Numbered from the stretch's first letter, positions 6,908 to 63,233 are shown. The stretch is DNA of 64,000 nt from Bacteroidales bacterium (GCA_041671145.1 JBAZBZ010000011.1:6255-70254), one strand, 5' to 3'. Notes: generated from the sequence alone by a model not told the origin. Made by a program: numbers and translations.

Positions 6908-7007
6908 ATTAATTAATAAATAATAATTTTTAAAATAAATCACATTAGATAGTGTTTGTCCATAAAGTAGAGAATTTATAAACATGCATTAAATTATTGA
7001 ATAAAAC

Positions 7008-46905: not shown

Positions 46906-46917
46906 TTAGAATTTGTC

Positions 46918-47019
46918 CAGAATGTCCGATTTCTTCGTTACTCTCGTTTTAAAATCAGTCATTTACTTTAGTAAACTCCTGATTTTAAAACTTCGAAAGC
47001 CTCGAACTCGGACATTCTG
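46918..47019 (+). repeat. three-helix structured intergenic element, copy E1
   Basis: Outer 12-bp perfect stem (46918-46929 with 47008-47019). Middle 13-bp perfect stem (46946-46958 with 46979-46991). Apical TTTAC/GTAAA stem. Conserved TCATTTAC and GTAAACTCC. Confidence 0.75.
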
Positions 47020-47048
47020 AACCAAACTCTCGACTTTATGGACAGGCA

Positions 47049-47111
47049 CTAGTTAGTTCTTAGTTCGCAATTTTACTAATGACTTATGACTCTAAACTGA
47101 AAACCGAAAAC
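47049..47111. repeat. degenerate heptamer-periodic tract
   Basis: ctagtta gttctta gttcgca attttac taatgac ttatgac tctaaac tgaaaac cgaaaac. Confidence 0.7.
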
Positions 47112-47116
47112 TTATT

Positions 47117-47614
47117 TTATTTCGACTTGGTAATTATTAAATATACAGCAAGCGCAATACAGATAATAAGAATGCATGTAATTGCAATATTCCAGAAATC
47201 GTGCCCTCTTCCTCCTCTCGGTGCTGCTTTTGTATCAGATTTTTTCACATCCTGCTTGTAATTTTGTTTTTTTACATCATTAGAATTTGAAACTGAAAGT
47301 TTTTTTGTTGCTTTTTTTAAAATAAAAGGAATTAATGCTTCTTCGTGAGAAGTTGAAATGCTATTTTTATTTTCAGGAATATATGAAAGTAAATCGTTGT
47401 TCTTATCTGGAACATAATTTTCATCTTCTGCTGTAATTACTTTAGATTTTTCTGGTATTTTATTGCTGTTGCAATAATTTGCTCCGTCGCTGTTTACAGC
47501 AGCTTTCTGAAGTTTGTCATATCTTTTTTGTGTAAATTGCTTTTCATGCGAGCAAGATGCAATCAAAAAAAAGCAAACTGAAATTGAAATTAATCGTAAT
47601 GCTTTATTTTTCAT
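47117..47614 (-). CDS. hypothetical lipoprotein with C-terminal TM helix
   Basis: Lipobox LIASC. Low-complexity middle region. C-terminal hydrophobic helix. Confidence 0.4.
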   Translation of the reverse strand: MKNKALRLISISVCFFLIASCSHEKQFTQKRYDKLQKAAVNSDGANYCNSNKIPEKSKVITAEDENYVPDKNNDLLSYIPENKNSISTSHEEALIPFILKKATKKLSVSNSNDVKKQNYKQDVKKSDTKAAPRGGRGHDFWNIAITCILIICIALAVYLIITKSK

Positions 47615-47753
47615 CTTTAATTTATTTTAAAAGTTTATAAAAAAAATAATTCAGCGAAACATTATGTTCCTACAAATGTAAAATAATAATTTATTATATC
47701 AACACTTTTTATGTTACCTCATTTTACTTAATTTTGCCTGATAAAGTAATTTT

Positions 47754-49628
47754 ATGCGAGTTGCAATAAAATATTTTCTGAAATTCTTTATTTTCTGGTA
47801 CATTTTCTTTTTTATGCAAAGAATAATTTTTCTGCTTTTCAGCTTTAAAATGCTCAAAAATGTTTCTGTTCAGGAAATCTTATCATGCAATTATTACTCT
47901 ATTGGCGTTGATATTTCAGCAATATGCTATTTAATTGTTTTTCCGGTATTATTTTTTATAATCTATTTATTTATTGCAAAAAATATATTTCTTAATATAA
48001 TAAATAGCATTACCATAATTTTAATAATTCTTAATATCCTTGTTGGTGCAGCTGACATAGGGCTTAATTTATCGTGGGGTTCGAAAATAAATGCAATGGC
48101 AATGGAAAGTTTTAGATATCCGCGTGAGGCATTCGGACTTATTTTTTCAAAAGAACATTTACTTTTATTTATTCTTATTATTCTTCAAAGTTTTATCTGG
48201 ATTTATTTTTATTCGCAATTTATTTATTTTAAGAATAGCATTAATTTAAATATTTTCAAAAAAATATTATTTTCTGTTTTGTTGATTTTTCTTTGTATTA
48301 CAGGCATCAGAGGCGGATTGCAGAAATATCCTATAAGTAAAAGCTGGGCTTACTATTCGACAAATTCAACTTTAAATAATGCTTCACTTAATGGATTTTG
48401 GAATTTTGCAGAAATATTTTTCAAGAAACAGGTTACAAAAAATCCATATAATTATTTTAATCAAAAAGAAGCTGATAAAATTATTAAAGAATTATATCCC
48501 TATATAAAAGATACGACAGAAATTATAATAAATACAAATCGTCCAAATATAATTTTAATACTTATTGAAAGCTTAAGTGCCGATGCAGTAGGGTGTTTAG
48601 ATGGTGAAAAAAACATTACCCCGCAAATTGATTCATTAAGTAAATCGGGTTATCTTTTTACTGATTTTTATGCAACAGGATTTCGTACCGACCAGGGTTT
48701 AGTTGCTTTGCTTAGCGGTTTTCCGGCACAGCCCCAAAATTCAGTAATTAAAGATTTCGGAAAATTCGAAAAACTTCCTAATCTCATTTCTGTTTTGAAA
48801 AATAAAAATTATTATACTTCATACTATTGCAGTGGAAAATTATGGTTTGCAAATACCGATGTTTACCTTAAAACCGCCGGAATTGATAAACTTATCGGAG
48901 AAAATGACTTTAACATTAAAAGAAAAACATTGTGGGGGGCTTATGATGAAGAATTATTTGATTTTCATTTGAGAGATATTAAAAACATAAAACAACCTTT
49001 TTTCTCAATCATAATGACAAGCACATCCCACGAGTGGTTCGATGCCGATGTTGAAAATATTTTCGGCAATGATAATATTTGTGAGAAATATAAAAACACT
49101 ATTCACTACACCGATAAATGCTTATCGCAATACCTGCAAAAAGCAAAGCAACAGGAATGGTATAAAAATACTTTGTTCATTATTACAGCCGACCATGCTC
49201 ATTCATTCCCGAAATGCAGAAATTACAACGAAATTGGCAGACACCATATTCCATTTCTATTTTATGGCGATGTATTAAAAAAAGAATACCGTGGTGTGAA
49301 AAACAATAAAATTGCTTCGCATATTGATTTCGCTGCAACTCTGCTTTCACAGCTAAATATAAATTGCAGCAAATTCAGATTCAGTAAAAATATTTTTAAT
49401 AAAAATTCCGAAGGTTTTGCATTTTATACTTTCGACAACGGCTTTGGATTTATTGATAAAAACCAATCAGTTATTTTCGACCACAATCTTAATAAAACAG
49501 TTTATGAAAAAAATAAATTGCCTGCAATTCTCAATGAAAATAACTTAAACAAAGGAAAAGCACTTATGCAAAGTGTATTTCAGCAATATCTCGATTTATC
49601 AATAATGAAACGAACTCCTGCGTTTTAA
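47754..49628 (+). CDS. LTA synthase/sulfatase family membrane protein (alkaline phosphatase superfamily)
   Basis: About five N-terminal TM helices followed by a sulfatase-type domain (NIILILIESLSAD, TADHAH). Confidence 0.7.
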   Translation: MRVAIKYFLKFFIFWYIFFFMQRIIFLLFSFKMLKNVSVQEILSCNYYSIGVDISAICYLIVFPVLFFIIYLFIAKNIFLNIINSITIILIILNILVGAADIGLNLSWGSKINAMAMESFRYPREAFGLIFSKEHLLLFILIILQSFIWIYFYSQFIYFKNSINLNIFKKILFSVLLIFLCITGIRGGLQKYPISKSWAYYSTNSTLNNASLNGFWNFAEIFFKKQVTKNPYNYFNQKEADKIIKELYPYIKDTTEIIINTNRPNIILILIESLSADAVGCLDGEKNITPQIDSLSKSGYLFTDFYATGFRTDQGLVALLSGFPAQPQNSVIKDFGKFEKLPNLISVLKNKNYYTSYYCSGKLWFANTDVYLKTAGIDKLIGENDFNIKRKTLWGAYDEELFDFHLRDIKNIKQPFFSIIMTSTSHEWFDADVENIFGNDNICEKYKNTIHYTDKCLSQYLQKAKQQEWYKNTLFIITADHAHSFPKCRNYNEIGRHHIPFLFYGDVLKKEYRGVKNNKIASHIDFAATLLSQLNINCSKFRFSKNIFNKNSEGFAFYTFDNGFGFIDKNQSVIFDHNLNKTVYEKNKLPAILNENNLNKGKALMQSVFQQYLDLSIMKRTPAF

Positions 49629-49677
49629 TTTTCGATATTTTTTCTCTCTGTTCATGGCTCGCAGCTTATTACTTTTA

Positions 49678-50316
49678 CTATTCTTCATTATCATCTTCAT
49701 CTTCCCAATCATATTTTTCGCGTTGCGGTCCTTTTTTTCTAAAAATAATTGCAATAATAAAGCCTGAAATTGCTCCCATTAAATGGGCTTCCCATGAAAT
49801 ATCGGGAGGATAAAATTTAGGAAAAATTCCCCAAATCATTCCTCCATACATAAAAGTTATAAGCAAAGAAATTGCAAGCAATTTTGTACTTCTTCTGATA
49901 ATACCGCTGAAAAACAAAAAAGAACCGGTGGCATAAACCAATCCGCTTGCCCCGATATGACTTGCATCTCTTGCGAAAATCCACACAAGAATGTCGGTCA
50001 TAAAAAACAGCAAAATAAAAATCAGGAATGCAATTTCATAATAAAAATAAAACAACGCCCAAAGCATTAAAAACAAGGGGATGGAATTTGATACCAAATG
50101 CGATAAATTGGCATGAATAAAAGGAGATGTTATTATCCCTATTAATCCTTCTTTTGTACGAGGTATAATTCCATAACTTATAAAATTTAAATCATACGAA
50201 ACCTCAATGTATTCAACAATCCATATTGTTAAAACAAGGAACATCGGAAAAATCATGCTTTTAAATACCTTGTTATCCTTATTCATAAGAGAAGCAAATT
50301 TAATAAAATATTTCAT
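49678..50316 (-). CDS. rhomboid family intramembrane serine protease
   Basis: HANLSHL and GASG catalytic motifs in TM helices. Acidic C-terminal tail. Confidence 0.75.
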   Translation of the reverse strand: MKYFIKFASLMNKDNKVFKSMIFPMFLVLTIWIVEYIEVSYDLNFISYGIIPRTKEGLIGIITSPFIHANLSHLVSNSIPLFLMLWALFYFYYEIAFLIFILLFFMTDILVWIFARDASHIGASGLVYATGSFLFFSGIIRRSTKLLAISLLITFMYGGMIWGIFPKFYPPDISWEAHLMGAISGFIIAIIFRKKGPQREKYDWEDEDDNEE

Positions 50317-50493
50317 TGACTAAGCACAAAATCCAAATCGGTTTTTTATAAATTCTAAAAATATTACTGCAAATTCTAAATAAACTTAAGCTAATTCTAA
50401 AATATGCTTGATGCGATAATTTTATTGTTATTTATTTGTCGTTAAATAAAAAATATGCCACTAAGACACGAGGACATCAAGTATCACAAAAGC

Positions 50494-50535
50494 GTTTAGC
50501 AACTACTTGCGACTTAATACTTACGACTTGCGACT
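50494..50535. repeat. heptamer array (NNNNACT)
   Basis: gtttagc aactact tgcgact taatact tacgact tgcgact. Confidence 0.75.
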
Positions 50536-50638
50536 AATAATGTTAATATCTTAAACAAAAAGAAATTGATTAATTGATTAAAAATATTTTAATTTGTAAA
50601 ACAATAACAGGAAATTATAAACTGAAAACTAAATAATC

Positions 50639-51652
50639 ATGGCAAAAGAAGTAAATGAAACAAGCGAAAAAGTAAAAGCTCTTAATCTTACTATTGATAA
50701 ACTCGAAAAAACTTATGGCAAGGGAACTATAATGAAATTGGGAGACAATGCGATTGAAGCGGTAGAAGTTATTTCCACGGGCTCGTTGTCACTTGATGTT
50801 GCATTAGGAGTTGGCGGATTACCAAAAGGAAGAGTAGTTGAGATATATGGTCCTGAATCGTCAGGGAAAACCACTCTTGCGCTGCATGCAATTGCAGAGT
50901 CGCAGAAGAAAGGCGGAATTGCAGCATTAATTGATGCCGAACATGCTTTCGATAGGTTTTACGGACAAAAGCTTGGCGTTGATGTTGAAAATCTTTTAAT
51001 TTCCCAGCCCGATAACGGGGAACAAGCGCTGGAAATTGCCGATAATCTTATACGTTCCGGAGCAATTGACATTCTTGTAATTGACTCGGTTGCGGCACTT
51101 ACACCTAAAAGCGAAATTGAAGGCGAGATGGGCGATTCAAAAATGGGACTTCATGCGCGACTTATGTCGCAGGCATTACGTAAGTTAACTGCTACTATCA
51201 GCAGAACAAAATGTTGTTGCATTTTCATCAACCAGCTTCGCGAAAAAATAGGGATTATGTTTGGCAATCCTGAAACAACAACCGGAGGAAATGCATTAAA
51301 ATTTTATGCATCCATTCGTCTTGACATAAGAAGAATAAGCCAGATAAAGGAAGGTGAAATTGCTGTCGGTAACAGAGTAAAAGTTAAAGTTGTGAAAAAT
51401 AAAGTTGCTCCTCCTTTCCGAATTGCAGAATTTGATATAATTTTTGGTGAAGGCATTTCCAAAGTTGGAGAAATAATTGACATTGGAGTAGATAATAACA
51501 TAATCAAAAAAAGCGGTTCATGGTTTAGTTACAAAGACACCAAACTCGGACAAGGACGCGATGCCGTCAAGCAAATCATGAACGACAATGTAGAACTTGC
51601 AGAAGAAATTGAAAGTAAAATAAAAGAAGTTCTTGCTGCAAAAGCTAATTAA
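50639..51652 (+). CDS. recA: recombinase RecA
   Basis: [13 protein letters not shown] Walker [15 protein letters not shown] and [10 protein letters not shown]. Confidence 0.97.
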
Positions 51653-51658
51653 CATAAT

Positions 51659-52696
51659 ATGAGAAATTTATTTTGTGTTTTTATTTTATTATTTTTCATT
51701 TCCTGCGGAAATAATGGCAAGGAAAAAGAAAAAAACAGAACAAATTCCAAAGACACAATTACCGCAAAATTTGATGATTTAAATAAAAAAATAGAAGAAA
51801 GTCCTACCAATATTGATTTATATTTCGAGAGGGCAAAACTTTACGTATTAATGCAGGATGCTGGCAAAGCACTTGAAGATATGAGAAAAGTTCTTACTGT
51901 TGATACTAACAAAGCCAGCTATTTTTATACACTTTCCGATATCTATTTCATGATTGGTAAGGCAAAAGCATCTAAATCAGCTCTTGAAAAGTGTATTTCT
52001 CTTGACCCTAAAAACACTGATGCTATTTTAAAACTTGCTGAGCTGCATTTTTATTTCAAAGAATATCCCGAAGCTATTGAATGTACAAGCAAAGCGCTTA
52101 AAGTAGATAAATTTCTCGCAAAAGCATATTTTATAAAAGGAATGATATACAAGGAAAACGGTGATACCGCAACTTCAGTTAAATGCTTTCAGATAACAAC
52201 CGATATGGACCCGAAGTATTTCAAGGCTTATGAGGAATTGGGGTTGTTATTTTTTAAAAAGAAAAATAAACTTGCTTTGGATTATTTTGAAAATGCGTTG
52301 AAAATAAATCCTAAAAGTATTGACATTTATTATGATGTCGCTATGTTTTATCAGGAAACAAAAAATTATAAAAAAGCTATAGAAACTTATTTTGGCTTAT
52401 TGCAATTAGACCCGAAATATAAAAATGCTTATTACAATATCGGTTATATAAATCTTCTGTTTTATAAAGATTATAAGGAAGCGATAAATCAATTTACGAA
52501 AGCCATACAAGTTGATTCGGCATACTCAGAGGCATATTACATGAGAGGTTTATCGTATGAGGAATCGGGTGATAAAAAAAATGCTTACATGAATTATCTG
52601 AAAGCAAATATGCTTAAAACAAATTTTGAAGAAGCAATTGAAGGCATAAACAGAATCGAAGGACATAAAAAAATAAATCCAAAAAAGCATAAATAA
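51659..52696 (+). CDS. TPR repeat lipoprotein
   Basis: Lipobox ISC followed by successive TPR units. Confidence 0.7.
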   Translation: MRNLFCVFILLFFISCGNNGKEKEKNRTNSKDTITAKFDDLNKKIEESPTNIDLYFERAKLYVLMQDAGKALEDMRKVLTVDTNKASYFYTLSDIYFMIGKAKASKSALEKCISLDPKNTDAILKLAELHFYFKEYPEAIECTSKALKVDKFLAKAYFIKGMIYKENGDTATSVKCFQITTDMDPKYFKAYEELGLLFFKKKNKLALDYFENALKINPKSIDIYYDVAMFYQETKNYKKAIETYFGLLQLDPKYKNAYYNIGYINLLFYKDYKEAINQFTKAIQVDSAYSEAYYMRGLSYEESGDKKNAYMNYLKANMLKTNFEEAIEGINRIEGHKKINPKKHK

Positions 52697-52708
52697 AATA
52701 ATTAATAA

Positions 52709-53458
52709 ATGAGAAAGCTTGGTATCATTGGTGGTTCAGGATTAGAAAATCTGAATATTTTTCAAAATGCAAAAGAAAATGAAATTGATACACCCTACGG
52801 CAAACCGAGTTCATCAATATTAACTGGTACTATCGAAGGAGTTGAAGTTGCCATACTTTCTAGGCATGGAAGAACACACTGCATTCCTCCAACTCAGATA
52901 AATAACAGAGCAAACATTAATGCGCTAAAGCAAATTTCCTGCACACACATTTTTGCAACAACCGCATGCGGAAGTTTAAGAGAGGAAATTGGCAGGGGAC
53001 ACATTGTTTTCCCCGACCAGTTTATTGATTTTACGCGACACCGCGCTGTTTCATTTCACGAAACATTTGAAAACGGCAATCTTGCCCACACTCCAATGGC
53101 AGAACCATTTTCAAAAGAGCTTAGAAATATTTTATGCAATAAAGCAAAAGAATTAAAATTAAAGTTTCATCAGGCAGGAACCGTAATAACAATAGAAGGA
53201 CCGAGATTTTCAACAAGGGCGGAATCAAATATGTTCAGATTATGGAATGCAGATATTATAAATATGTCAACTGCTCCTGAATGTATTCTTGCAAATGAAG
53301 CCGGTATTCCTTATGCCGCTATCGCCCTCAGCACCGATTACGATTGCTGGAAAACCGATGAAGCACCCGTTACATGGGAAGAAGTTCTGAAAGTATTTAA
53401 TCGGAACATCGCAAATGTTACTGATTTATTGATTAACGTGATTAAAGCATTCCGATAG
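52709..53458 (+). CDS. mtnP: S-methyl-5'-thioadenosine phosphorylase
   Basis: LGIIGGSG, LSRHGR.H, GPRFSTRAES and NMSTAPE motifs. Confidence 0.85.
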   Translation: MRKLGIIGGSGLENLNIFQNAKENEIDTPYGKPSSSILTGTIEGVEVAILSRHGRTHCIPPTQINNRANINALKQISCTHIFATTACGSLREEIGRGHIVFPDQFIDFTRHRAVSFHETFENGNLAHTPMAEPFSKELRNILCNKAKELKLKFHQAGTVITIEGPRFSTRAESNMFRLWNADIINMSTAPECILANEAGIPYAAIALSTDYDCWKTDEAPVTWEEVLKVFNRNIANVTDLLINVIKAFR

Positions 53459-53483
53459 CTACAATCCGAATATTTCAGGCAAA

Positions 53484-55010
53484 TTATTTTTTTCTTTTTT
53501 TTAATTGATAATTTCCTTTCTTTTTATTTTCAGCAGTAACATTTTTTTTGGAAGGGCTTATTGATTTATACCAGAAGTATAAGCTAATTACAGAGGCAAT
53601 AAACAAAAACATCCAGAAATATATTCCCGTTTCGGGTTTTACATTAAGTACTATTGTTAAAAGATTATTTGCATTAAATCTGTGAGCAGTAAATTCGGGA
53701 ATTATGATACTTGAAAAAGTATTTGAAAATTCATTGCTTTTCTGAAAGTAATCGGGTACCATGTATACCAAAGTTGATTTTGCATACCAAGAACTGATAA
53801 TGCCAAATAAAGCAAATCCGATAAAAACAAATATGTTTACTTTGGTTTTTGAAATAAATATTAATCCTTCGTATAGCAAAACTATTGCAAGTACAATCAA
53901 ATATCTCGGCCCGTATGACCATCCTCCCCACCAAACAAAATATGAAGAGATGATTAAAAAAAATACAATACTGAATATAAAAAGATAATTTGTTTTGATT
54001 TTATTTATGAATTTTTCATCTTTAATAATGGATTTAATAATAAAAAATAGGACTATAAGAAGCGTAGGAACAAAAATAAATAATCCCATTGAGCCGCTAA
54101 AAGACAATCCCCATAACGCTTCGATTGAAGGTAATTTGAATCCATAATTGTGACCAACTTCTTTGTAAGCTTCTAACGCATTGTATGCTATAAGCATTTT
54201 AAAAGGGTAGCCGGTTATAAACCAATTATAAATAGAGATAATAATTATTGAAGGTAGTGTTCCGAGAGCAAAATAGAAAGGAAATTTTATTTTTTTTTCT
54301 TTAATAAGAATAAGAATACACCAGATTGGAGCAGCAATTAAAATAGGATATTCACACAAGAAGCTTAATCCCAGAAAAACGCCTGATAAAAAATATTTTT
54401 TTTCTTTTAGTTCAATGTAGCTTAACAAAAGGAATAATCCTGCTAATATATGATTAAAATATGTACCCGAAAAAACAAAAATAAACGAACCGTAAAATGC
54501 AAGCATTACCAATAATACCGGAGAAAATGATGGTTTGAGTTTTCTTAATGCTAAAAAAGTGAGCGTAATTATTATAACAAAAGGCAGCGAACCGAAAAGA
54601 AAACCTCCGAGGATAAGAAGAGGAATAATTTCAGGGAACATAAAATCGCGTGAGTCATATTTTCCAATCGGACGCCACACGTAAACAGGAAATTTTTTTC
54701 CAGCATCTTTGCTCACTTTAGTCAATCCAGCTAATTTGATGAATTCATAAAATGGTATTGCCAGAAGTGTTGGCAACGGTGCTTTATCTGAATAAAAATG
54801 ATTTCCGACTTTGCTTTTATCAATTGTTTGGTCGGCGTATTTATCAATTATAAGAGTTCTGCTTTCGGAAAAAGTTAAAACAGGCAATGCCCGGGAAACA
54901 GGATTTGGCGTAGGCCATATATCAATAAAATATGAAGATAAAAAAAGATTTACAATGAAGAAAACTATTATAAAAACCTTCCATTTTCTTTTATCATCAA
55001 CTGTTTTCAT
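53484..55010 (-). CDS. polytopic membrane protein, possible GT-C (PMT_2/ArnT-like) glycosyltransferase
   Basis: More than 10 predicted TM helices. First-loop motif YSDKAPLPTLLAIPFY resembles the DKPPL loop of PMT_2-type transferases. Confidence 0.45.
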   Translation of the reverse strand: MKTVDDKRKWKVFIIVFFIVNLFLSSYFIDIWPTPNPVSRALPVLTFSESRTLIIDKYADQTIDKSKVGNHFYSDKAPLPTLLAIPFYEFIKLAGLTKVSKDAGKKFPVYVWRPIGKYDSRDFMFPEIIPLLILGGFLFGSLPFVIIITLTFLALRKLKPSFSPVLLVMLAFYGSFIFVFSGTYFNHILAGLFLLLSYIELKEKKYFLSGVFLGLSFLCEYPILIAAPIWCILILIKEKKIKFPFYFALGTLPSIIIISIYNWFITGYPFKMLIAYNALEAYKEVGHNYGFKLPSIEALWGLSFSGSMGLFIFVPTLLIVLFFIIKSIIKDEKFINKIKTNYLFIFSIVFFLIISSYFVWWGGWSYGPRYLIVLAIVLLYEGLIFISKTKVNIFVFIGFALFGIISSWYAKSTLVYMVPDYFQKSNEFSNTFSSIIIPEFTAHRFNANNLLTIVLNVKPETGIYFWMFLFIASVISLYFWYKSISPSKKNVTAENKKKGNYQLKKRKK

Positions 55011-55194
55011 AATTTAAACTCTGTAAATTAAAATATTTAAAAAGTGCTAAATTATTAAAATAGTGTGAAAATAAAAAGTCGTAAATATAAAGTCGTAAGA
55101 GAAAAATAGAGTTGCTGAAAATTTCACCACTTCATAAATTAAAAAAGGTAACCCTCCGAAAAAGATTACCTCATAATTTTATGATATTCGGGTA

Positions 55195-55542
55195 CTAAAT
55201 ATTTTCTTCTTTAATGCGGGCGCTTTTGCCTTTGAGTTTTCTTAAATAGAATATTTTTGCTCTTCTCACTTTACCGCGTTTGTTGACTTCAATTTCATCA
55301 ATAAACGGTGAGTTAAGGGGAAATATTCTTTCAACACCTACATTGCCCGATATTTTTCTCACTGTAAAAGTTTTTGATAATCCTGTGCCTTTTCTTTGAA
55401 GTACGGTTCCCTGAAATTGCTGTATGCGTTCTTTTGCACCTTCCTTTATTTTATAAGAAACGGTAATTGTATCTCCGGCTTTGAATGCGGGCAGGTTTTT
55501 TTTCTCTGATAATAAATCTTCAATTTCTTTAATCTTATCCAT
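55195..55542 (-). CDS. rplS: 50S ribosomal protein L19
   Basis: MDKIKEIE...[25 protein letters not shown]... Start at the ATG at 55542. Confidence 0.9.
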
Positions 55543-55627
55543 TGCTGTAATATTTATATATATGTCTAAAAAAACGGAGTACAAATATATGGAATAATTT
55601 TGGAAAAACAGAAAAAAGTTAAAAAAA

Positions 55628-56305
55628 TCATTCTTTTAACAAATCGGGATAACGTTTTTTAGTTTTTTCAATTGCTTTTTCAGACCGCCATTTCTGGATT
55701 TCCTTATCGTTGCCCGATAGCAAAACATCGGGAACTTTCAGCCCTTTGTAGTCGGAGGGACGTGTATAAACAGGTGGGGATAGCAAATCGTCCTGAAATG
55801 AATCACTAAGAGCAGATGTTTCGTCTGATAAAACTCCAGGAATTATGCGGATAATGGCATCGCAAAGAATTGCAGCCGGCAGTTCACCTCCCGAAAGGAC
55901 ATATTTTCCTATCGAAATTTCTTTTGTAATAAAATTCTCACGTATTCTTTCGTCCACACCTTTGTAATGACCACAAAGTATGATTATATTTTTCAATGTA
56001 GATAAGTGGTTTGAAGTTTTCTGGTCAAGCAAATCGCCATCGGGTGTCATAAAAATAACTTCATCATATTTTCTTTTTTTCTTCAGATTTTCAATGCACT
56101 TTGCAATTGGTTCAACCATCATTACCATTCCTGCACCCCCACCATAAGAATAATCATCAACTTGCTTGTGTTTGGTCGAACTATAATCCCTGATGTCGTG
56201 AAAATAAATTCTTACTATTTTTTTTTTAATAGCCCTTTTAATGATTGAGTGTTCAAAAGGACTTTTCAGAAGTTTGGGAAATATTGTGAGAATATCTATT
56301 CGCAT
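55628..56305 (-). CDS. trmD: tRNA (guanosine(37)-N1)-methyltransferase
   Basis: [10 protein letters not shown]..., [13 protein letters not shown] and [10 protein letters not shown]. Start at the ATG at 56305. Confidence 0.9.
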
Positions 56306-56376
56306 TGACTTGAAAATTTTATTCACAAATATCAGTTTTTTTATCGACATTTTACTCATCAATTAATAAAATCTAA

Positions 56377-56384
56377 TACTTTTG
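56377..56384 (+). promoter_or_regulatory. -7 box TACTTTTG at the start of a ~310-nt leader before the USP-antiporter operon
   Basis: TAnnTTTG match. A second match (TATTTTTG) lies near 56443. Confidence 0.3.
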
Positions 56385-56703
56385 TGAAACTAATTAAAGC
56401 AATTGAAAAATTATGATATGTGAAGTATAAGATAACATATTGATATTTTTGTGTAACAGTTGTTGAGTGAGTGCTTGAGTTGTAAAGTTAAATTGATATT
56501 AATTATATGAAATATCCATGCAAACAAAAATAGGTTGTACAAACCGTAAATGATTAAAAATTCAGTGCTGTTTTCAACGAAGAAAGGCATGGATATTCGC
56601 GACCAGAATGTGTTTCGGTTGTGGGAGGGAGCAACTAAGAAGGTTAATAAACAAAACATCAAATTAACAGCAGCAATTTCAATCACTTACAAAATTTAAA
56701 CAG

Positions 56704-57576
56704 ATGAAAAACACCATAGAACCTGACTTTTTAAAGAAACATTTTAATAAAATAGCTGTTGCGGTTACGTTCTCAAGCCGTCTGGAGCCAATAATTGCAG
56801 AATCGGGCAGATTAAAAAAGATTGCCGACAGCGAATATTATTTTATTCATGTAGGACATAAAACATCTGAAAAGGAACAAATACTTGATGAACTTTTTAA
56901 AAAATATGAATTTGAAAAGGCAAACATTATATGGGGTACTGGGAATAAAGTTAATGCAATACTTGATATTTGTGAAAGCATGAAAATCGAGCTTCTTATT
57001 GCCGGTGCATTATCAAGGGAAACAATGCTGCAATATTATATTGGTTCTGTAGCGAGGCAAATTATCAGAAAGTCATATTGCTCCGTTTTATTGCTCAGCG
57101 AACCTGCAATTTCACCACGTCCGTACAAAAGAATTGCAATAAATTTTTCAGAAGAAAGGGATAACGAAACTTTGGCTTTAATAGGAATTTCAATTGCTGT
57201 TTCTCATAAATCAGAAAAAGTTTTTCTGACAAAAGAAACAGATGCCAACCGTTTTAAATTGCTTCTTAATAAAGACCTTTCTGAAGCGGAACTTAAAGAA
57301 ACCCAAAAAGAAATCATAAAAGAAGAAAATGAAGTTTTTGATAGTTTATTGAAAAAGATTGAAAAATTTGACGTAGGTGAATTGGATATTTCATCAAAAC
57401 TACTTTATGGTAAACCGGGAAGTGAAATAAGAGATTTTGCTCTTGAAAACAGGGTGGATTTTCTTGTTATACATTCACCTTATAAAAAACTTAATCTGAT
57501 TGACAGAATTTTTCAGCATGACTTGGAATATTTACTTGAAAACTTACCATCGGATATATTGATGGTTCATTCGTAA
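56704..57576 (+). CDS. tandem universal stress protein domain protein
   Basis: Two USP-like halves (...LLIAGALSRE..., ...DFLVIHSPYKK...). 3 nt upstream of the antiporter gene. Confidence 0.7.
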   Translation: MKNTIEPDFLKKHFNKIAVAVTFSSRLEPIIAESGRLKKIADSEYYFIHVGHKTSEKEQILDELFKKYEFEKANIIWGTGNKVNAILDICESMKIELLIAGALSRETMLQYYIGSVARQIIRKSYCSVLLLSEPAISPRPYKRIAINFSEERDNETLALIGISIAVSHKSEKVFLTKETDANRFKLLLNKDLSEAELKETQKEIIKEENEVFDSLLKKIEKFDVGELDISSKLLYGKPGSEIRDFALENRVDFLVIHSPYKKLNLIDRIFQHDLEYLLENLPSDILMVHS

Positions 57577-57579
57577 AAC

Positions 57580-58884
57580 ATGGCGAAACTCGAATATACC
57601 GAATTAATAACACTATTGCTTCAGCTAAGTTTGATGCTGATTGCTGCCAGAATATTCGGTGAATTTGCACGAAAATTACGTCAGCCGGTTATTGTCGGAG
57701 AAATTTTGGCAGGCGTTATTTTAGGTCCTTCTGTTCTCGGTACAATTTCACCACACTCATTCAATTCGATTTTTCCACATATTGGCGGAACCCCGCTTGC
57801 TTTAGATGGAATAATTTCTTTGTCTGTAATTTTACTTTTGTTTATTGCAGGACTTGAAATAGAACTTGACTTATTGTGGAAATATGGAAAATCAGCATTA
57901 TCTATAAGTTTATTAGGCGTGATTATTCCTTTAACAGTTGGTTTTTTTGTTCCTTATTATTATCCCGGATTATTTTATATAACAGATGATAAACAAAAAA
58001 TTATTTTCTGCTTGTTTTTCGGAACTTCACTTTCCATTACCGCCTTGCCTGTTATAGCAAAAATTCTGATTGATTTGAATTTGTTGAAATCAAAATTGGG
58101 AATTCCGATTATTTCATCTGCAATGATAGATGATGTTATTGGATGGCTTATTTTTTCAATTATATTGTCGCATTTTAAAACAACAGGAAAAGAAACAACT
58201 TATTTTTATACAATAATTCTTACAATTGGATTTGTTCTTCTTATGTTTATTGTCGGCAAAAGGATTCTTGACCATTTTTTGCCATGGATAAATAAACATC
58301 TTGCATGGCCCGGAGGTTTTCTTTCACTTTCGCTCGCACTTTGTTTTCTTTGTGCTGCTTTTACCGAATATATAGGTATTCACGCTGTATTCGGTGCTTT
58401 CGTGCTTGGCATAACTTTGCGAGATGTTTCAGCTCTTAACGAAAAAGCTAAAGAAATCGTTTATCAGTTTGTAAATAATGTTTTTGCTCCGCTGTTTTTC
58501 GTTTCAATAGGATTAAAAGTGAATTTTGTTACAAATTTTGATTTGCAATTGGTTTTAATCGTTATAGTTCTTGCATTTTTCGGAAAAATAATCGGCTGCG
58601 GACTTGGAGCATATTTAAGCAAACATAATTTAAGGGAATCTTTAGCCATAGGATTTGCAATGAATGCAAGAGGTGCAATGGAAATTATACTCGGACTTCT
58701 CGCATTGCAAAATAAACTTATAAAAGAAAGTATGTTTGTTGCTATTGTTGTAATGGCTCTGTTTACAAGTATTTTAGCAGGTCCGTTCATGAAACTATTT
58801 CTGAAAAAATCATCGGTATTAAAACCAATATCTCCGCAAAATCCAACACAACTCAAGCTGACAATCGAAGAAACTAAAGAATAA
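57580..58884 (+). CDS. cation:proton antiporter (CPA2/Kef-type)
   Basis: About 12 TM helices. GEILAGVILGPS and AMIDDVIGW motifs. Confidence 0.85.
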   Translation: MAKLEYTELITLLLQLSLMLIAARIFGEFARKLRQPVIVGEILAGVILGPSVLGTISPHSFNSIFPHIGGTPLALDGIISLSVILLLFIAGLEIELDLLWKYGKSALSISLLGVIIPLTVGFFVPYYYPGLFYITDDKQKIIFCLFFGTSLSITALPVIAKILIDLNLLKSKLGIPIISSAMIDDVIGWLIFSIILSHFKTTGKETTYFYTIILTIGFVLLMFIVGKRILDHFLPWINKHLAWPGGFLSLSLALCFLCAAFTEYIGIHAVFGAFVLGITLRDVSALNEKAKEIVYQFVNNVFAPLFFVSIGLKVNFVTNFDLQLVLIVIVLAFFGKIIGCGLGAYLSKHNLRESLAIGFAMNARGAMEIILGLLALQNKLIKESMFVAIVVMALFTSILAGPFMKLFLKKSSVLKPISPQNPTQLKLTIEETKE

Positions 58885-58887
58885 AGA

Positions 58888-59004
58888 GCATCTCTAAAAA
58901 CTCGCCTCTCTTCGTTGGACTTCAAAATCCAAATCCTCATTAACACACAGTTAACTCCTGTTGGAATTTCTTGTCCGCCTCGATATCCGAGTTTTTAGAG
59001 ATGC
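58888..59004 (+). repeat. three-helix structured intergenic element, copy E3
   Basis: Outer 17-bp perfect stem (58888-58904 with 58988-59004). Middle stem GGAC..TCCAA with TTGGA..GTCC. Apical TTAAC/GTTAA stem. Conserved TCATTAAC and GTTAACTCC. Confidence 0.7.
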
Positions 59005-59068
59005 CCTAAAGTAACCGGTACTGGTATGTGGCATTCAGTAAAAAACTCTAAGCTCCTTGCTCTATGCC

Positions 59069-60307
59069 CTAATTCGTACTTAAATTTTTAACATCGAAGA
59101 AATTGCTTTTTCTTAGTTGTCGTATAGGATACCATGAGGTAAGTAGAGCAATTAAAAATACTGTTATAAAAACATATATAAAATCCTTTATGTGTAATTC
59201 TACGGGATAAGTATTTATAACAAATGTACCGGTTGCCTGAATTTTGATTAATCCGAATTTTTGCTGAATAATGCAGATTAAAGCACCAAGAGCAAGTCCG
59301 GCAATCGCTCCGAGCAAATTTATCATCAATCCTTCTATTAAAAATATTCTGCTTATTAATTTATTGCTTGCACCAAGCGATTTAAGAATCATCGCATCTT
59401 TTTTCTTTTCAAGTATGAGCATAGTCAGCGAGCCGATAATATTAAATGTGGCGATTATCAATATAAAACTTAAAATAAGAAACACTGCCCATTTTTCATT
59501 TTTCATGACTTTGTAAAGCAATTTATGCTGCTGGTAGCGATTTTCGACAATAAATCCGCTGCCAACTAATTTCTGAATTTCCTTTTGTACATTTTCCTTA
59601 TCTGTATTTTTTGAAAGTCCAATTTCTATTGCAGTAATATCTTCTTTGTATTCGAGCAATCTGCGGGCAAACCGAAGCGGAACCAAAACATACTTTATGT
59701 CAAAGTCCTGCTGAATAGAAAAAACTCCTGTAGGAAGAATTGCCAGATTATTGAAAGCACTCATCTGGTTGTAAATATTTTTTGTTCGACGCGGAACATA
59801 AATACTCAGTGGTGTAGAAAAATCCTTTAAATTTAAAGAAAGAAAATATGCAATTCCCTGTCCTACAATAGCAAAGTTGTTGCTGTCAGATTCAAGTGTA
59901 AATGAACCGCCAACAATCATTGTATCGAGCTTGCTCATTTTCTTAAAATCACTTTCAACTCCTTTTATTGTGGCAATGTATTGTTTGTCGTGGTACTTCA
60001 AAAGTGCATTTTCTTCAAGTATATTTGTGTAAAAAATAACTCCATTAATTTTTTTAATCTTTTCAATCGGTATATTATGTGGATTAAATGTTTTACCGAG
60101 TTTTGCAGTAATTTTTATATCAGGGTCGAACGAATTGAAAAGTGAAATCACAACACTTTCGAAACCGTTGAAGACAGAAAGAACAATTATCAGAGCCATT
60201 GTTCCTACCATAACTCCGATAACTGAAATCAATGAAATAACATTTATTATATTGTGTGATTTCTTTGAAAAAATATATCGCTTCGCTATGAAAAATGAAA
60301 AATTCAA
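59069..60307 (-). CDS. FtsX-like ABC transporter permease (LolC/E family)
   Basis: N-terminal FFIAKRYIFSKK, large periplasmic loop and C-terminal FtsX 3-TM module. Confidence 0.8.
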   Translation of the reverse strand: MNFSFFIAKRYIFSKKSHNIINVISLISVIGVMVGTMALIIVLSVFNGFESVVISLFNSFDPDIKITAKLGKTFNPHNIPIEKIKKINGVIFYTNILEENALLKYHDKQYIATIKGVESDFKKMSKLDTMIVGGSFTLESDSNNFAIVGQGIAYFLSLNLKDFSTPLSIYVPRRTKNIYNQMSAFNNLAILPTGVFSIQQDFDIKYVLVPLRFARRLLEYKEDITAIEIGLSKNTDKENVQKEIQKLVGSGFIVENRYQQHKLLYKVMKNEKWAVFLILSFILIIATFNIIGSLTMLILEKKKDAMILKSLGASNKLISRIFLIEGLMINLLGAIAGLALGALICIIQQKFGLIKIQATGTFVINTYPVELHIKDFIYVFITVFLIALLTSWYPIRQLRKSNFFDVKNLSTN

Positions 60308-60605
60308 ATTCAGAAGTTTAATTGTTATCAGGCAAAAGTAAGTAAAGTTTTCTTAATATATTTTTACAAGGAATGAATTTTAAAAGTTTGTGGTTTGTCG
60401 TTTGGTAATATGTATGAAATAAATTCCTATTTTTAAATAAAAAATTACTTGTTGTTATTTATTGCAATATTTCGGCAATTTTTTCTCAAGGCATACAGAG
60501 TTTTATTAGCTCTCAATAACATTTTTTAACTATAAACAACAAACATTTTAAACGACAAACGTATTATAAAAGTGAGAAGTTAATAATGGTTAAAATATAT
60601 TTAAT

Positions 60606-60613
60606 TATATTTG
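60606..60613 (+). promoter_or_regulatory. -7 box TATATTTG upstream of nadK
   Basis: TAnnTTTG match 20 nt upstream of the ATG at 60633. Confidence 0.45.
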
Positions 60614-60632
60614 TTTGTTAAAATTATATTTT

Positions 60633-61517
60633 ATGAAAATAGGCATATACGGGAAAAATTTAAATGAGAAGTGCAGAAATAATGCTGTTAAACTCATTGA
60701 AAAACTTGAAAAACATAAATTCGGGTTGTTTGTTTATGAGCCGTTTTATAACTTACTTTTAAAAAAAAATAAAATAAAATTTTCTTCGAAAATAATTCCT
60801 TTTAATTCACATTTGGAAATAAAAAATAAAATTGATTTTCTTTTCGGCATAGGTGGTGACGGAACTATACTAAATACCATAAATCTTGTTTATAATTCAG
60901 GAATTCCGATAATGGGAATTAATACCGGAAGATTGGGTTTTTTATCAAGTACATCCGTCGAAGATTGCGACAAAGCAATTCAGTGCCTCATTGATAAAGA
61001 TTATTATCTTGATAAAAGAACACTTTTAAAACTTGAAACAGAAAATAATTTATTTAGAAATGAAAATTACGCTTTGAATGATGTTACAATTCAGAAAAAA
61101 GATATTTCGTCAATGGTAAATATTCACGCATATATAAATGGTGAATTTCTGAATTCGTACTGGGCTGACGGCTTATTGGTTTCAACTCCCACCGGCTCCA
61201 CAGCGTACTCGCTAAGTTGCGGAGGACCGATTGTAGTGCCTGAATCAAAAAATTTTGTAATCAATCCTATTGCACCACATAACCTTAATGTGCGTCCCAT
61301 AATAATTCCCGATGATAAAACAATAACTTTGAAAATTGAGGGAAAAAGTAAAAGTTTTTTAATTTGTCTCGATTCACGCGTTGAAACAATTGATTCAAAA
61401 ATCGAATTAAAAATTACAAAAGCTAACTTTTGCATAAACCTTGTCAGATTAAAGAATCAGAATTTTTTTTCTACAATCCGTAATAAACTCATGTGGGGAA
61501 TGGATAAAAGAAATTAA
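60633..61517 (+). CDS. nadK: NAD kinase
   Basis: GGDGT motif, NDV and STPTGSTAYSLSCGGPIV. Start at the ATG at 60633. Confidence 0.9.
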   Translation: MKIGIYGKNLNEKCRNNAVKLIEKLEKHKFGLFVYEPFYNLLLKKNKIKFSSKIIPFNSHLEIKNKIDFLFGIGGDGTILNTINLVYNSGIPIMGINTGRLGFLSSTSVEDCDKAIQCLIDKDYYLDKRTLLKLETENNLFRNENYALNDVTIQKKDISSMVNIHAYINGEFLNSYWADGLLVSTPTGSTAYSLSCGGPIVVPESKNFVINPIAPHNLNVRPIIIPDDKTITLKIEGKSKSFLICLDSRVETIDSKIELKITKANFCINLVRLKNQNFFSTIRNKLMWGMDKRN

Positions 61518-61586
61518 TTAATTTTGTTACATCAAGAAAAATAGTTTTGTTAATTTTTTTTATTTTTAATACTTAAAAATGATTTT

Positions 61587-62900
61587 ATGCTTAAACAAAC
61601 TGTTTTTATCATCACGCTTATAGCTACAATTGCTGCTTTCACTTATTCTGTTTCAAAAATCATTGCTTTGCTTAATATTACAAAAAAAGCTTATCCGATA
61701 AAAGATATATGGAAGAGAATAATAATGACAATAAACGTTGCTTTTTCCCAGAGCAAAATATTCAGACGTCCGGTGATAGGTTTTTTACATGCCTTGGTAT
61801 TCTGGGGATTTCTGGTGATTTGTGTGGGAAGCAGCGAAATTATTTTTGATGGTGTTACCGGAAGTGAAAAGGTTTTTTCTTCTTGGGGCATAATATATGA
61901 TATCATCACGACATCGGGAGATATTTTCGGTTTGCTGGTTTTAATTTCAATTATTGTTTTTCTTGTCCGTCGCGTATTCATGCACATCAAGAGATTTTAT
62001 GGCATTGAAATGAAAAAGAAATTTCACACCGATGCCAATATAGCATTGTCAATAATTTTGTTGCTTATGATTTCATTGCTAAGCATGAATTCCTCATATA
62101 TCACTTTTACTCCGTCTTATGATGTTGTTGGAACATACCCTGTAAGCAGATTTATTGCACCTTATTTTCATGGTATGGATTTCAGTGTTATTTATGTGAT
62201 TAATCAGGTAAGCTGGTGGACGCATATTTTACTAGTTTTCTTTTTTGCAAATTATCTTCCTTACTCAAAACATTTTCATGTTTTCATGTCAATACCGAAT
62301 GTTTTTGTCAGCAGATTAGAGCCGCTTGGAAAATTACCGAATATGGAAAATGTTACAAAAGAAGTTAAATTAATGCTTGATACCTCAACTGCTTATTCAG
62401 CAACTGCTGAAGCAGGAGCAGAGCTATCGCGTTTTGGTGTTAAGGATGTTGAAGACGGAACATGGAAAAATTTTGCCGATTCGCTTTCATGCACGCAATG
62501 CGGAAGATGCACATCTGTTTGTCCGGCAAATATTACAGGAAAAAAACTTTCACCGCGAAAAATATTAATGGACTTCAGAGCAAGGATGAAAGAAAAAGGA
62601 AAATTTTTATTGAAAGATAAAAAGTACACAGACAACAAATCTTTGCTTAGAGATTTTATAAGCGAAGAAGAAATATGGGCTTGTACAACCTGCAATGCGT
62701 GTGCAAAGGAATGTCCAGTAAACATAAATCATCCTACATTAATTGTTGATTTGCGAAGATATCTTGTAATGGAAGAAGCCAAAGCACCAAGCGGATTGAA
62801 TGCAATTTTTGCAAATATTGAAAACAATGGAGCACCTTGGCAATTTTCACCGCAGGACAGGTTGTTGTGGGCAAATGATTTGTGTATGAATAAGAAATAG
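61587..62900 (+). CDS. membrane-anchored (Fe-S)-binding protein with two 4Fe-4S ferredoxin motifs
   Basis: About 5-6 N-terminal TM helices followed by CTQCGRCTSVCP and CTTCNACAKECP. Confidence 0.7.
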   Translation: MLKQTVFIITLIATIAAFTYSVSKIIALLNITKKAYPIKDIWKRIIMTINVAFSQSKIFRRPVIGFLHALVFWGFLVICVGSSEIIFDGVTGSEKVFSSWGIIYDIITTSGDIFGLLVLISIIVFLVRRVFMHIKRFYGIEMKKKFHTDANIALSIILLLMISLLSMNSSYITFTPSYDVVGTYPVSRFIAPYFHGMDFSVIYVINQVSWWTHILLVFFFANYLPYSKHFHVFMSIPNVFVSRLEPLGKLPNMENVTKEVKLMLDTSTAYSATAEAGAELSRFGVKDVEDGTWKNFADSLSCTQCGRCTSVCPANITGKKLSPRKILMDFRARMKEKGKFLLKDKKYTDNKSLLRDFISEEEIWACTTCNACAKECPVNINHPTLIVDLRRYLVMEEAKAPSGLNAIFANIENNGAPWQFSPQDRLLWANDLCMNKK

Positions 62901-62925
62901 TTTATGGCTTTTAGTTAGCGGCTGC

Positions 62926-63032
62926 AAGAAAACGCCAACTACTGCGTTATTCTCGTCTTGAAAAAAAGTCATTTACAAAAAGTAAACTCCATATTTTCAA
63001 AACATCGAAAGCCTTGTATTTGGCGTTTTCTT
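62926..63032 (+). repeat. three-helix structured intergenic element, copy E2
   Basis: Outer 13-bp perfect stem (62926-62938 with 63020-63032). Interior closely similar to E1 (CGTTAYTCTCGT, TCATTTAC, GTAAACTCC, TCGAAAGCC). Confidence 0.75.
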
Positions 63033-63212
63033 ATCACCAACTTAAAATTTTAATAGTTTTCTTACAAACACTGGTTAAAGGTTTTGCCAGCAAACGCTTT
63101 ATCTCTATAAAATCCTAAGCCAAACATAGTAATATCGTCACAATAAATGTATAATATGCCATAAAGTCGTTTGAATAAATGTACTCATAATACAATTTGT
63201 CAAATAACTTTT

Positions 63213-63220
63213 GTATCTTT
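63213..63220 (+). promoter_or_regulatory. -7 box TATCTTTG upstream of the AAA ATPase gene
   Basis: TAnnTTTG match 14 nt upstream of the ATG at 63234. Confidence 0.4.
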
Positions 63221-63233
63221 GTAAAAAAAATAT

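Follow-up and report, generated by a model that had tools for sequence, protein, structure and literature searches.

The question raised by this locus is whether a hairpin that recurs three times within 16 kb of a Bacteroidales genome is a structured RNA or single-stranded DNA under selection for its fold, as originally predicted, or a piece of mobile DNA. In the 64-kb window (the whole stretch of DNA that was analysed) the three copies, E1, E3 and E2, were found again on the plus strand at the places first noted, each carrying the blocks CTKCGTT, TCATTWAC, GTWAACTCC and GCCTYG (3/3 copies) and each lying behind the gene described for it (encoding a SurA-like PPIase, a Na+/H+ exchanger and a 4Fe-4S protein, respectively); E1 and E3 are placed between convergent genes. 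The combined motif TCATTWAC-N3-8-GTWAACTCC occurs three times in the window as against 0.00 times in 100 shuffles, and a search of the window with the full covariance model R1 (filters off) returned no fourth copy, the next independent match having an E value of 0.2. The copies are 120–154 bp long and have no coding capacity. A conserved peptide starting from GGAG...ATG was considered and rejected, since the frames from the internal ATG and their sequences differ between copies; the changes in the stems are compensatory, not synonymous. We propose that the three copies are very probably small non-coding MITEs related to the enterobacterial ERIC repeat, and it is their inverted repeats, their target-site duplications and the ends shared with insertion sequences that lead us to read them as MITEs and not as dedicated RNA genes.

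Each copy proved to be larger than had been noted, with target-site duplications beyond its terminal inverted repeats (Table 1). The outer stems of 12, 13 and 17 bp had been taken to be unrelated in sequence. Their pairing is indeed perfect, but they are homologous positions that have diverged, with the same variants recurring in other taxa, and they represent the element's inverted repeats instead of freely varying RNA helices. Similarly, where structure had been set against transposition, the covarying hairpin with conserved loops stands, and the supposed lack of transposon termini does not, given the inverted repeats and duplications. E1 and E2 have duplications of 6 bp (TAWWTA type), and E3 has one of 5 bp. 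The right outer end of E1 is complementary to, and can pair with, its left end, and the two ends of E3 are identical over positions 3–18 (16 nt); relatives show these ends again. The subfamily of E2 is also present in four other loci (L001, L005, L060 and L074), with TAWWTA flanks in each.

Table 1. Coordinates of the three copies, read here as probable MITEs, of their parts and flanking genes, and of the insertion sequences that share E1-type ends
Feature	Position	Strand	Sequence or remark
SurA-like PPIase gene	45481-46905		TAG stop (46903-46905) inside E1 left duplication
E1	46909-47049	- (ERIC-type, GGAG...TGA model strand)	complete 141-bp MITE
E1 left target-site duplication	46903-46908		TAGTTA; direct repeat, 6/6 with 47050-47055
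E1 right target-site duplication	47050-47055		TAGTTA
E1 left end			13/18 match to insertion sequence end GTGTCTGTCCATAAAGTC
E1 right outer end			17/18 identical to insertion sequence end GTGTCTGTCCATAAAGTC
E1 inner hairpin (extent first noted)	46918-47019	-	apical motif 46959-46979
E1 right-hand inverted repeat, inner copy	47011-47031		pairs with left end
E1 right-hand inverted repeat, outer copy (true terminus)	47032-47049		GACTTTATGGACAGGCAC
E1 match to model R1	46902-47037	-	128.4 bits
Na+/H+ exchanger gene	57580-58884		TAA stop (58882-58884) inside E3 left duplication
E3	58887-59006	-	120-bp MITE, third subfamily; apical stem TTAAC/GTTAA
E3 left target-site duplication	58882-58886		TAAAG
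E3 right target-site duplication	59007-59011		TAAAG; 5/5 with left
E3 ends			AGCATCTCTAAAAACTCG / CGAGTTTTTAGAGATGCCC
E3 termini, short form			AGRGCATCTCTAAAAACTCG
E3 match to model R1	58879-59014	-	89.8 bits
E2	62918-63071	-	complete 154-bp MITE, related subfamily, right arm duplicated
E2 left target-site duplication	62912-62917		TAGTTA
E2 right target-site duplication	63072-63077		TGGTTA, 5/6 match
E2 ends			GCGGCTGCAAGAAAAC... and ...GTTTTCTTACAAACAC
E2 termini, short form			GYGGCTGCAAGAAAAC
E2 match to model R1	62911-63049	-	114.7 bits
Insertion sequences with same 19-20 bp ends	L252:517-2524; L254:82-1723; L257:219-1903; L351:156-1855		

In particular, the E1-type ends (17/18) are those of insertion sequences of 1.6–2.0 kb in other genomes (1642–2008 bp), which are flanked by 6-bp TAATTA duplications and code for a single DDE transposase of the ISNCY family (related to IS5), presumably of the ISDol1 subgroup. 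The ORF in L254 matches NCBIfam NF033593 (ISNCY; 361.7 bits, cutoff 325), and the ORFs in L254 and L351 match Pfam DDE_Tnp_1, that in L351 additionally matching DUF772. In Proteobacteria, elements of 916–946 bp bear the ends of the MITE and match the IS5-family transposase NF033580 (284.7 bits); in Pseudomonas and Halomonas the same module lies between IS5-family termini with TA flanks, and the duplication of proteobacterial relatives is TA or TWA. Near-identical copies are found on many contigs within single genomes, and Anaerophaga and several MAGs have many copies per genome; cultured carriers include Anaerophaga thermohalophila DSM 12881 and Marinilabilia salmonicolor. Of 24 relatives delimited automatically, 7 had perfect 6/6 flanking repeats, compared with 2.7% for flanks taken from different copies; duplications are under-counted here, since the automated delimitation counted the palindromic TA as part of the repeat and in some cases chose the inner right arm. 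Further flanking duplications are visible by eye among the relatives.

The 64-kb window encodes no transposase for these ends, which means that mobilisation, if any, would have to occur in trans, and among the initial loci the search for an autonomous partner gave only pairs of MITEs. The interior does not look as if it arose by deletion from the insertion sequences; similarity to them ends after ~19 nt. The closest relative found of the SurA-like gene, in a Bacteroidales MAG (L123; 84% amino-acid identity), has no element downstream, in a locus too diverged on that side for a clean empty-site alignment. Other vehicles were considered and rejected: true elements made up only 3–4 of the 80 viral-contig pattern matches (phage), there was no plasmid match, and in L073, where three copies lie in ~1.6 kb with their starts ~700 bp apart, the intervening genes (for a cyclophilin, a small conserved protein and a glycosidase) belong to an ordinary co-directional operon and not to an integron cassette. 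In size, in inverted repeats and duplications, and in their dispersed multi-copy occurrence, as well as in the ends that the E1 type shares with transposase-encoding elements, the copies are MITEs; that those in the window have themselves moved is suggested by their ends and duplications and, for the E1 type, by a partner from other genomes.

The interior of the element is a conserved hairpin with strong covariation, and its core motifs are CAAGGC, GGAG-apical stem-N4-5-TGA and AACGMAG. All three copies give much more stable folds than their shuffled versions (z = -8.8, -5.8 and -8.0). The copies had been read on the plus strand, but the minus strand of the window folds better by 6–11 kcal/mol in 3/3 copies, and among relatives the complementary (window-minus-type) strand does so in 80/83, by a mean of 10.6 kcal/mol. 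The exchange of TTTAC/GTAAA for TTAAC/GTTAA in E3 is real. In a MAFFT-only alignment of 29 copies, 84.9% of cells were paired as against 64.6% in shuffles, with double changes at 41 of 48 pairs, and covariation was seen again on two other alignments (112 and 53 further copies). RNAalifold applied to all-phyla MAFFT alignments recovered the apical stem only, because the variable stems misalign, and was replaced by a Bacteroidota-only seed with covariance models. Mismatches are strand-specific (G.T 89 versus A.C 46, with purine–purine exceeding pyrimidine–pyrimidine), and this asymmetry is present in all parts of the hairpin. Covariation in an inverted-repeat transposon is nonetheless inseparable from constraints acting on the DNA.

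ERIC, the enterobacterial repetitive intergenic consensus (also IRU), was reportedly described by Sharples and Lloyd in 1990 and by Hulton and colleagues in 1991. In 49 kb of E. coli sequence, model R2, which contains no enterobacterial sequence, has ERIC as its sole match (E 5e-6; 34.2 bits, against 12.5 bits for the runner-up), and model R1, for which only Bacteroidota copies were used, detects the same ERIC copy with 25.3 bits (E 0.0015); similarity that a sequence search (BLAST) did not find is significant at the level of covariance models. A Bacteroidales copy, L312, bears the ERIC apical sequence GGAGCTTAC...GTAAGTGACTGG, and relatives are spread over at least seven bacterial phyla. Like ERIC (~127 bp), the elements are imperfect palindromes of ~120–150 bp that form one long hairpin, are intergenic and often lie directly after genes; they share the apical GGAG-YTTAC-N4-GTAAR-TGA, in which the T-A versus C-G difference is compensatory, together with a 3' AACGCAG block and a 5' CAAGGC-like block at equal positions. 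They differ from ERIC in their termini and in the rest of its 44-bp central core (GTGAATCCCCAGGAGCTTACATAAGTAAGTGACTGGGGTGAGCG, with which only GGAG-YTTAC-N4-GTAAR-TGA and the nearby AACGMAG are in common), in duplicating 5–6 bp (TAWWTA, TAAAG in the window copies) rather than TA, in the doubling of the inverted repeat at one end in the E1 and E2 types, and in a host that is neither enterobacterial nor a vibrio; the published range of ERIC comprises Enterobacteriaceae, Vibrionaceae and other Gammaproteobacteria (PMC10969869, PMC2267715). The reviews and papers on ERIC consulted here name no mobilising transposase for it, and a literature search for the core motif as a sequence string yielded nothing relevant.

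The comparison with Rfam that had been proposed produced no family matching the window copies. Neither the window nor any of 16 related loci gave a match at the gathering threshold, and at an E-value threshold E1 matched long hairpins of a generic kind, namely precursors of plant miRNAs, together with a chance match to RmaA (E 0.15–0.23). The Rfam family V_AS5 (RF02818, Vibrio RNA AS5) matches the E. coli ERIC copy with 46.9 bits (gathering score 96), as does part of isrH (RF01391) below threshold, so ERIC-type repeats appear already to have been recorded as expressed RNAs under other names; at E <= 5 the window copies match neither of the two families.

Considering the strong covariation and conserved unpaired motifs, the strand-specific excess of G.T over A.C and of purine–purine mismatches, and the ERIC-derived small RNA entries in Rfam, the copies could be thought to be dedicated cis-acting structured RNAs or 3'-UTR-derived small RNAs that are selected locus by locus, their repetition reflecting function. 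We find this scarcely credible in view of the target-site duplications, the ends shared with transposase-encoding insertion sequences, the near-identical multi-copy families, the element-free gene in L123 and the lack of Rfam matches for the window copies; moreover, among relatives the element is found in either orientation with respect to genes (26 versus 11 in tandem contexts, a bias and not a fixed orientation). A role as bidirectional intrinsic terminators would suit the convergent genes around E1 and E3 and the outer stem of E2 and E3, in which an A-tract and a T-tract pair up and enclose a stem richer in G+C (AAGAAAACGCCAA...TTGGCGTTTTCTT, CTAAAAACTCG...CGAGTTTTTAG). The original view that these are not classical terminators holds for E1, which has no T-tract and in whose region a terminator scan finds none; E2 and E3 have T-runs, but only within the 3' arm. 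Since relatives also lie between co-directional operon genes (as in L073), and a terminator role leaves the duplications and conserved loops unexplained, we consider it improbable.

Two further readings place the constraint on DNA. An enzyme that reads the bulges of one folded strand, as for IS200/IS605, REP/RAYT or attC, would be consistent with the better folding of that strand in nearly all relatives, with the tolerance of G.T and G.A mismatches on it alone and with structure being conserved above stem sequence. This is highly improbable, and the copies do not belong with IS200/IS605 or REP/RAYT, as they have symmetric inverted repeats and duplications of 5–6 bp or TA (duplications of this kind are not known from IS200/IS605 elements or attC recombination) and the partners found are classical DDE transposases; the orientation bias is also, weakly, at odds with a top strand on the lagging-strand template. 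Purely selfish DNA, with a functionless hairpin whose arms are kept by transposase recognition and by palindrome-templated repair (template switching), has the following in its favour: the entire element is one long palindrome, its outer helix is the inverted repeat that a transposase must recognise at both ends, and the same ends also cap unrelated interiors and tiny end-to-end palindromes. Template switching at quasi-palindromes is an established mutational mechanism and generates 'compensatory' double changes in one event. We nevertheless think this account rather unlikely as a whole, because CAAGGC, GGAG...TGA and AACGMAG are kept from Bacteroidota to E. coli while stems and termini change, because the interior stays the same despite ends and duplication lengths belonging to different transposase groups, and because symmetric processes at the DNA level do not predict mismatches that are strand-asymmetric throughout the hairpin.

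The reading that we prefer, ERIC-related MITEs, has points against it in the imperfect (5/6) duplication of E2, in the left end of E1 and in the cross-phylum conservation of the loops, which transposase recognition does not explain. The three window copies are probably old and diverged, and E1, its left end being degenerate, may no longer be mobile. We suggest that the elements would have inserted into TA-rich sites, which for E1 and E3 include the stop codon of the upstream gene; this would account for the nearness to stop codons and would have left the reading frame intact. They may then be transcribed together with neighbouring genes, and a long interrupted hairpin at the 3' end of an mRNA could affect the stability or processing of the transcript. 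By analogy with ERIC in Yersinia, for which an effect at the RNA level has been reported (reviews PMC3184786 and PMC10969869, citing De Gregorio 2005), a co-transcribed hairpin at mRNA 3' ends would be the likeliest function beyond mobility; against it, the orientation bias among relatives places the strand that folds less well in the upstream gene's mRNA.

Among known systems, IS5-related MITEs are likewise short, non-coding, multi-copy and intergenic, with ends identical to those of transposase-encoding insertion sequences and duplications of the same length as theirs. In contrast to such MITEs, the interior here is not the remnant of an internal deletion, but a separate structured module found across phyla and transposase groups (ISNCY, 6 bp; IS5, TA). 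The Correia/NEMIS repeats of Neisseria and the SPRITE, RUP and BOX repeats of pneumococcus form RNA hairpins that are RNase targets or terminator-like (PMC10969869, PMC3184786); judged by their descriptions they too are small palindromic mobile repeats co-transcribed with their neighbours, but they are genus-specific families, whereas the core described here spans several phyla. In a large survey (preprint) MITE clusters were mostly genus-specific.

Finally, the ~90-nt core (CAAGGC, helix, GGAG-apical stem-TGA, helix, AACGMAG) may be an ancient functional module and not transposon filler, a possibility that we entertain tentatively while leaning against it. The core rides with ISNCY (6 bp), with IS5 (TA) and with at least one more group giving 5-bp duplications, and in at least seven phyla it is retained with invariant bulges and stems that covary. 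This would suggest that the GGAG strand in its folded form, be it RNA or single-stranded DNA, benefits the host or is bound by some host factor of wide conservation; ERIC would then be only the enterobacterial tip of the family. For annotation, the case cautions against taking covariation for evidence of an RNA gene when the element is palindromic and mobile. ERIC has been in use for typing for 35 years; ERIC-type hairpin elements are now seen in a Bacteroidales genome, and the family is tied to concrete transposases (of the ISNCY family in Bacteroidota, of the IS5 family in Pseudomonas and Halomonas), with the interior and not the ends as its conserved part, the reverse of an ordinary MITE. 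This transposase link and the conserved interior make two old questions testable, namely what moves ERIC-like repeats and why their core is conserved.

The three hairpin copies in the window, E1, E2 and E3, are ERIC-like MITEs (ERIC, enterobacterial repetitive intergenic consensus). Both their predicted positions and the four sequence blocks common to them were verified in the sequence, and the window has three occurrences of the apical pattern TCATTWAC-N3-8-GTWAACTCC, vs none in 100 shuffles. Each copy forms one long interrupted hairpin (z −5.8 to −8.8), the fold of the minus strand (the GGAG strand) being 6–11 kcal/mol better than that of the plus strand in all three, and over all window positions the covariance-model matches were E1–E3 only (128, 115 and 90 bits; next independent match, E 0.2). 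Pfam agreed with the products first assigned to the upstream genes (SurA-like PPIase, Na+/H+ exchanger and 4Fe-4S protein); convergent genes flank E1 and E3.

Extent of the three copies in the window
Copy	Span first predicted	Full extent	Length	Duplication
E1	46918-47019	46909-47049	141 bp	TAGTTA / TAGTTA
E2	62926-63032	62918-63071	154 bp	TAGTTA / TGGTTA
E3	58888-59004	58887-59006	120 bp	TAAAG / TAAAG

The original prediction regarded these copies as structured RNA or single-stranded DNA 3' of plus-strand genes and argued against a transposon. The latter argument was wrong: inverted-repeat ends and target-site duplications were found, and E1 matches the end of an insertion sequence (IS), with 17 of 18 positions identical at the outer right end and 13 of 18 at the left. 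Beyond the spans first predicted, the Bacteroidota copies, read in TCATTTAC orientation, share one layout: a direct repeat is followed by GTGTCTGTCC..., by the core and by a right part made of an inner right-arm copy, a short spacer and an outer copy ...GGACAGACAC, after which the direct repeat recurs. Since this repeat is equal within a copy and variable among copies (TATTTA, TAAATA, TAATTA, TATATA, TAGTTA, TAACATA), it represents a target-site duplication of 6 bp (7 bp in one case); among 24 copies delimited automatically, the two repeats agreed perfectly in 7, vs 2.7 % for mismatched flanks. Proteobacterial copies with TAGGCTNNGTACGAAAA termini have TA flanks, and another type, with GAGCCTGTTCAC, has TWA. 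In E1 and E3 the left duplication includes the stop codon of the upstream gene, which explains the placement just after a gene with no need for a 3'-UTR function. The closest SurA-like gene found (84 % identity, Bacteroidales MAG, locus L123) has no element 3' of it; a different palindromic repeat of GTAATCGGTAATCAGTAACCGGTAATCAG units lies there (L123:560-660).

Right of E3, at 59040-59075, a partial second copy of an E3-type arm (GTAAAAAACTCTAAGC ... CTCTATGCCCTAA) overlaps the stop codon (59069-59071) of a convergent gene for an FtsX/MacB-type permease; it may be left over from a further insertion. In the last ~900 bp of the window (63078-64000) no ORF of at least 80 aa, tRNA or Rfam match was found, the sole feature being a 22-nt direct repeat (63130-63151 and 63162-63183).

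The predicted conserved hairpin with covarying stems held on three alignments.

Pairing and covariation in the three alignments (values for shuffled alignments in brackets)
Alignment	Copies	Paired cells	Covariation score
A4	29, Bacteroidota, MAFFT only	84.9 % (64.6 %)	0.531 (0.18)
A5	112, all phyla, model-aligned	85.8 % (55.5 %)	0.541 (0.142)
A6	53, found via termini, not core	88.1 % (70.7 %)	0.421 (0.16)

Double changes occur at 41 of the 48 pairs of the A4 hairpin, and shifting partners by 1–3 columns gave scores of at most 0.15. In A6, which is free of search-pattern bias because its copies were recruited by their termini, the apical stem covaries (TATAC/GTATA, AATAC/GTATT, TGTAC/GTACA, CTTAC/GTAAG, TTGAC/GTCAA, CCCGA/TCGGG), and GGAG and TGA beside it, CAAGGC and AACGMAG are largely kept. 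The GGAG strand gave the stabler fold in 80 of 83 elements (mean difference 10.6 kcal/mol). Helix mismatches are more often G.T than A.C (89 vs 46 in the MAFFT alignment, 255 vs 116 in the model alignment) and purine–purine than pyrimidine–pyrimidine (303 vs 54), an asymmetry equal in kind across the outer, middle and inner helices. We know of no strand-symmetric DNA process that would yield it and, given the gene orientations, we infer that a simple deamination bias tied to replication or transcription would have the opposite sign. Small G+C-rich hairpins (e.g. CCCCGnnnnnCGGGG, TCCCGA...TCGGGA) are inserted into ERIC-like copies or substitute the apical stem at L115, L306, L315, L331 and L305; L331 retains GGAG and TGA on both sides of the foreign stem.

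ERIC belongs to this very large family. Read on the opposite strand, the family core is GGAGTTTAC-N4-GTAAATGA and resembles the ERIC core GGAGCTTAC-ATAA-GTAAGTGA. The ERIC 44-mer was found without mismatch in 5424 of 5426 E. coli genomes. In an E. coli ERIC copy (L121:259-382, ybhI–ybhJ spacer), AACGCAG and a block resembling CAAGGC occupy the same places, and GGAGCTTAC...GTAAGTGACTGG is present in one Bacteroidales copy (L312). A covariance model of 29 Bacteroidota copies (R1) matched the E. coli copy end to end in ERIC orientation (25.3 bits, E 0.0015); for a model of 113 copies without enterobacteria (R2) this copy was the sole match in 49 kb of E. coli (34.2 bits, E 5e-6; runner-up 12.5). 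No Rfam family reached E1–E3. The E. coli copy matched, below threshold, V_AS5 (Vibrio RNA AS5; 46.9 bits) and part of isrH (its ends), so that some Rfam ‘sRNA’ families represent ERIC repeats under a different name. Reviews and surveys confine ERIC to Enterobacteriaceae, Vibrionaceae and other Gammaproteobacteria, and class it as a MITE with a TA duplication (PMC3184786, PMC10969869, PMC2267715), whereas duplications in the window are of 6 bp (E1, E2) or 5 bp (E3).

A search for the apical pattern in a single genome of each species gave at least 120 loci; among the matches listed, most carry the flanking blocks CTGCGTT and GCCTTG, and in 101 of 123 the core is enclosed by 25 pairs or more. 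Hosts also supported by the covariance model, among the matches listed, are many Bacteroidota and Pseudomonadota, Arcobacter, Mucispirillum, a Vampirovibrionales MAG, an Oligoflexales MAG and Clostridia MAGs, the last matching the central part of the model only. An element on a contig binned as Petrotogales (L043) is near-identical to Anaerophaga TTAAC-type copies (L015/L073/L085), which suggests either a contaminated bin or recent transfer. In variant copies from Pseudomonas (L023, L024, L055, L056, L076, L092) and Nitrosomonadales (L025, L084) the apical module runs into a different, longer lower stem (e.g. ...GGCGAGCGGAGCGAGT / ACTCGCGATGCTCGCC...) or is broken at a single constant position; they represent additional subfamilies or nested insertions.

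A terminus scan with TAGTGTCTGTCYATAAWG identified partner elements, all counts being among the matches listed. This 19-nt end is found on ERIC-like copies, on unrelated interiors, on tiny end-to-end palindromes and on at least four full ISs (1642-2008 bp, one ORF each of ~450-480 aa), two of the four having TAATTA duplications. The L254 ORF, the one scanned against NCBIfam, scored 361.7 with the ISNCY transposase model (cutoff 325), and Pfam placed DDE_Tnp_1 in the L254 and L351 ORFs and also DUF772 in L351; full IS size and the 6–7 bp duplication presumably fit the ISDol1 subgroup. No such transposase was found within the 64-kb window. Proteobacterial elements of 916-946 bp with TAGGCTNNGTACGAAAA termini have an IS5-family transposase encoded in two ORFs (NF033580, 284.7 bits vs cutoff 110), and MITE–IS similarity ends past the terminal repeat in ISNCY and IS5 cases alike.

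Loci with the 19-nt terminus on unrelated interiors are L253, L265, L291, L336 and L340; L250, L294, L298, L309, L314 and L337; and L271, L288, L334 and L347. In Thermodesulfovibrionales and Nitrospira MAGs one such interior contains a GTCATTCC...GGAATGAC palindrome; a second is found chiefly in Saprospiraceae MAGs, and Treponema MAGs have ~38-nt terminus-to-terminus palindromes. A fourth trace of the IS end in the window (approx. 6948-6986, between plus-strand genes 5897-6907 and 7008-8756) is a mini end-to-end palindrome without the ERIC-like core: TAGTGTTTGTCCATAAAGTA, with two mismatches to the IS terminus, then a degenerate inverted copy.

Taken together, we show that the copies are non-autonomous transposons whose ends and duplication length are those of known DDE transposase groups, and that their interior is a conserved ERIC-type hairpin. 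Insertion would be into TA-rich sites, often including stop codons; the median distance from one particular element end to the nearest stop is 13–15 nt in relatives, and tandem gene contexts show an orientation bias (26 vs 11), the better-folding strand usually being antisense to the adjacent upstream gene. The elements may be transcribed together with neighbouring genes and serve as hairpins at mRNA 3' ends, by analogy with ERIC in Yersinia, for which this was reported (PMC3184786, PMC10969869). Bulges are kept across phyla while termini and duplication lengths vary. The wider pattern, of moderate interest, is one structured core carried in many phyla by MITEs of different transposase groups.
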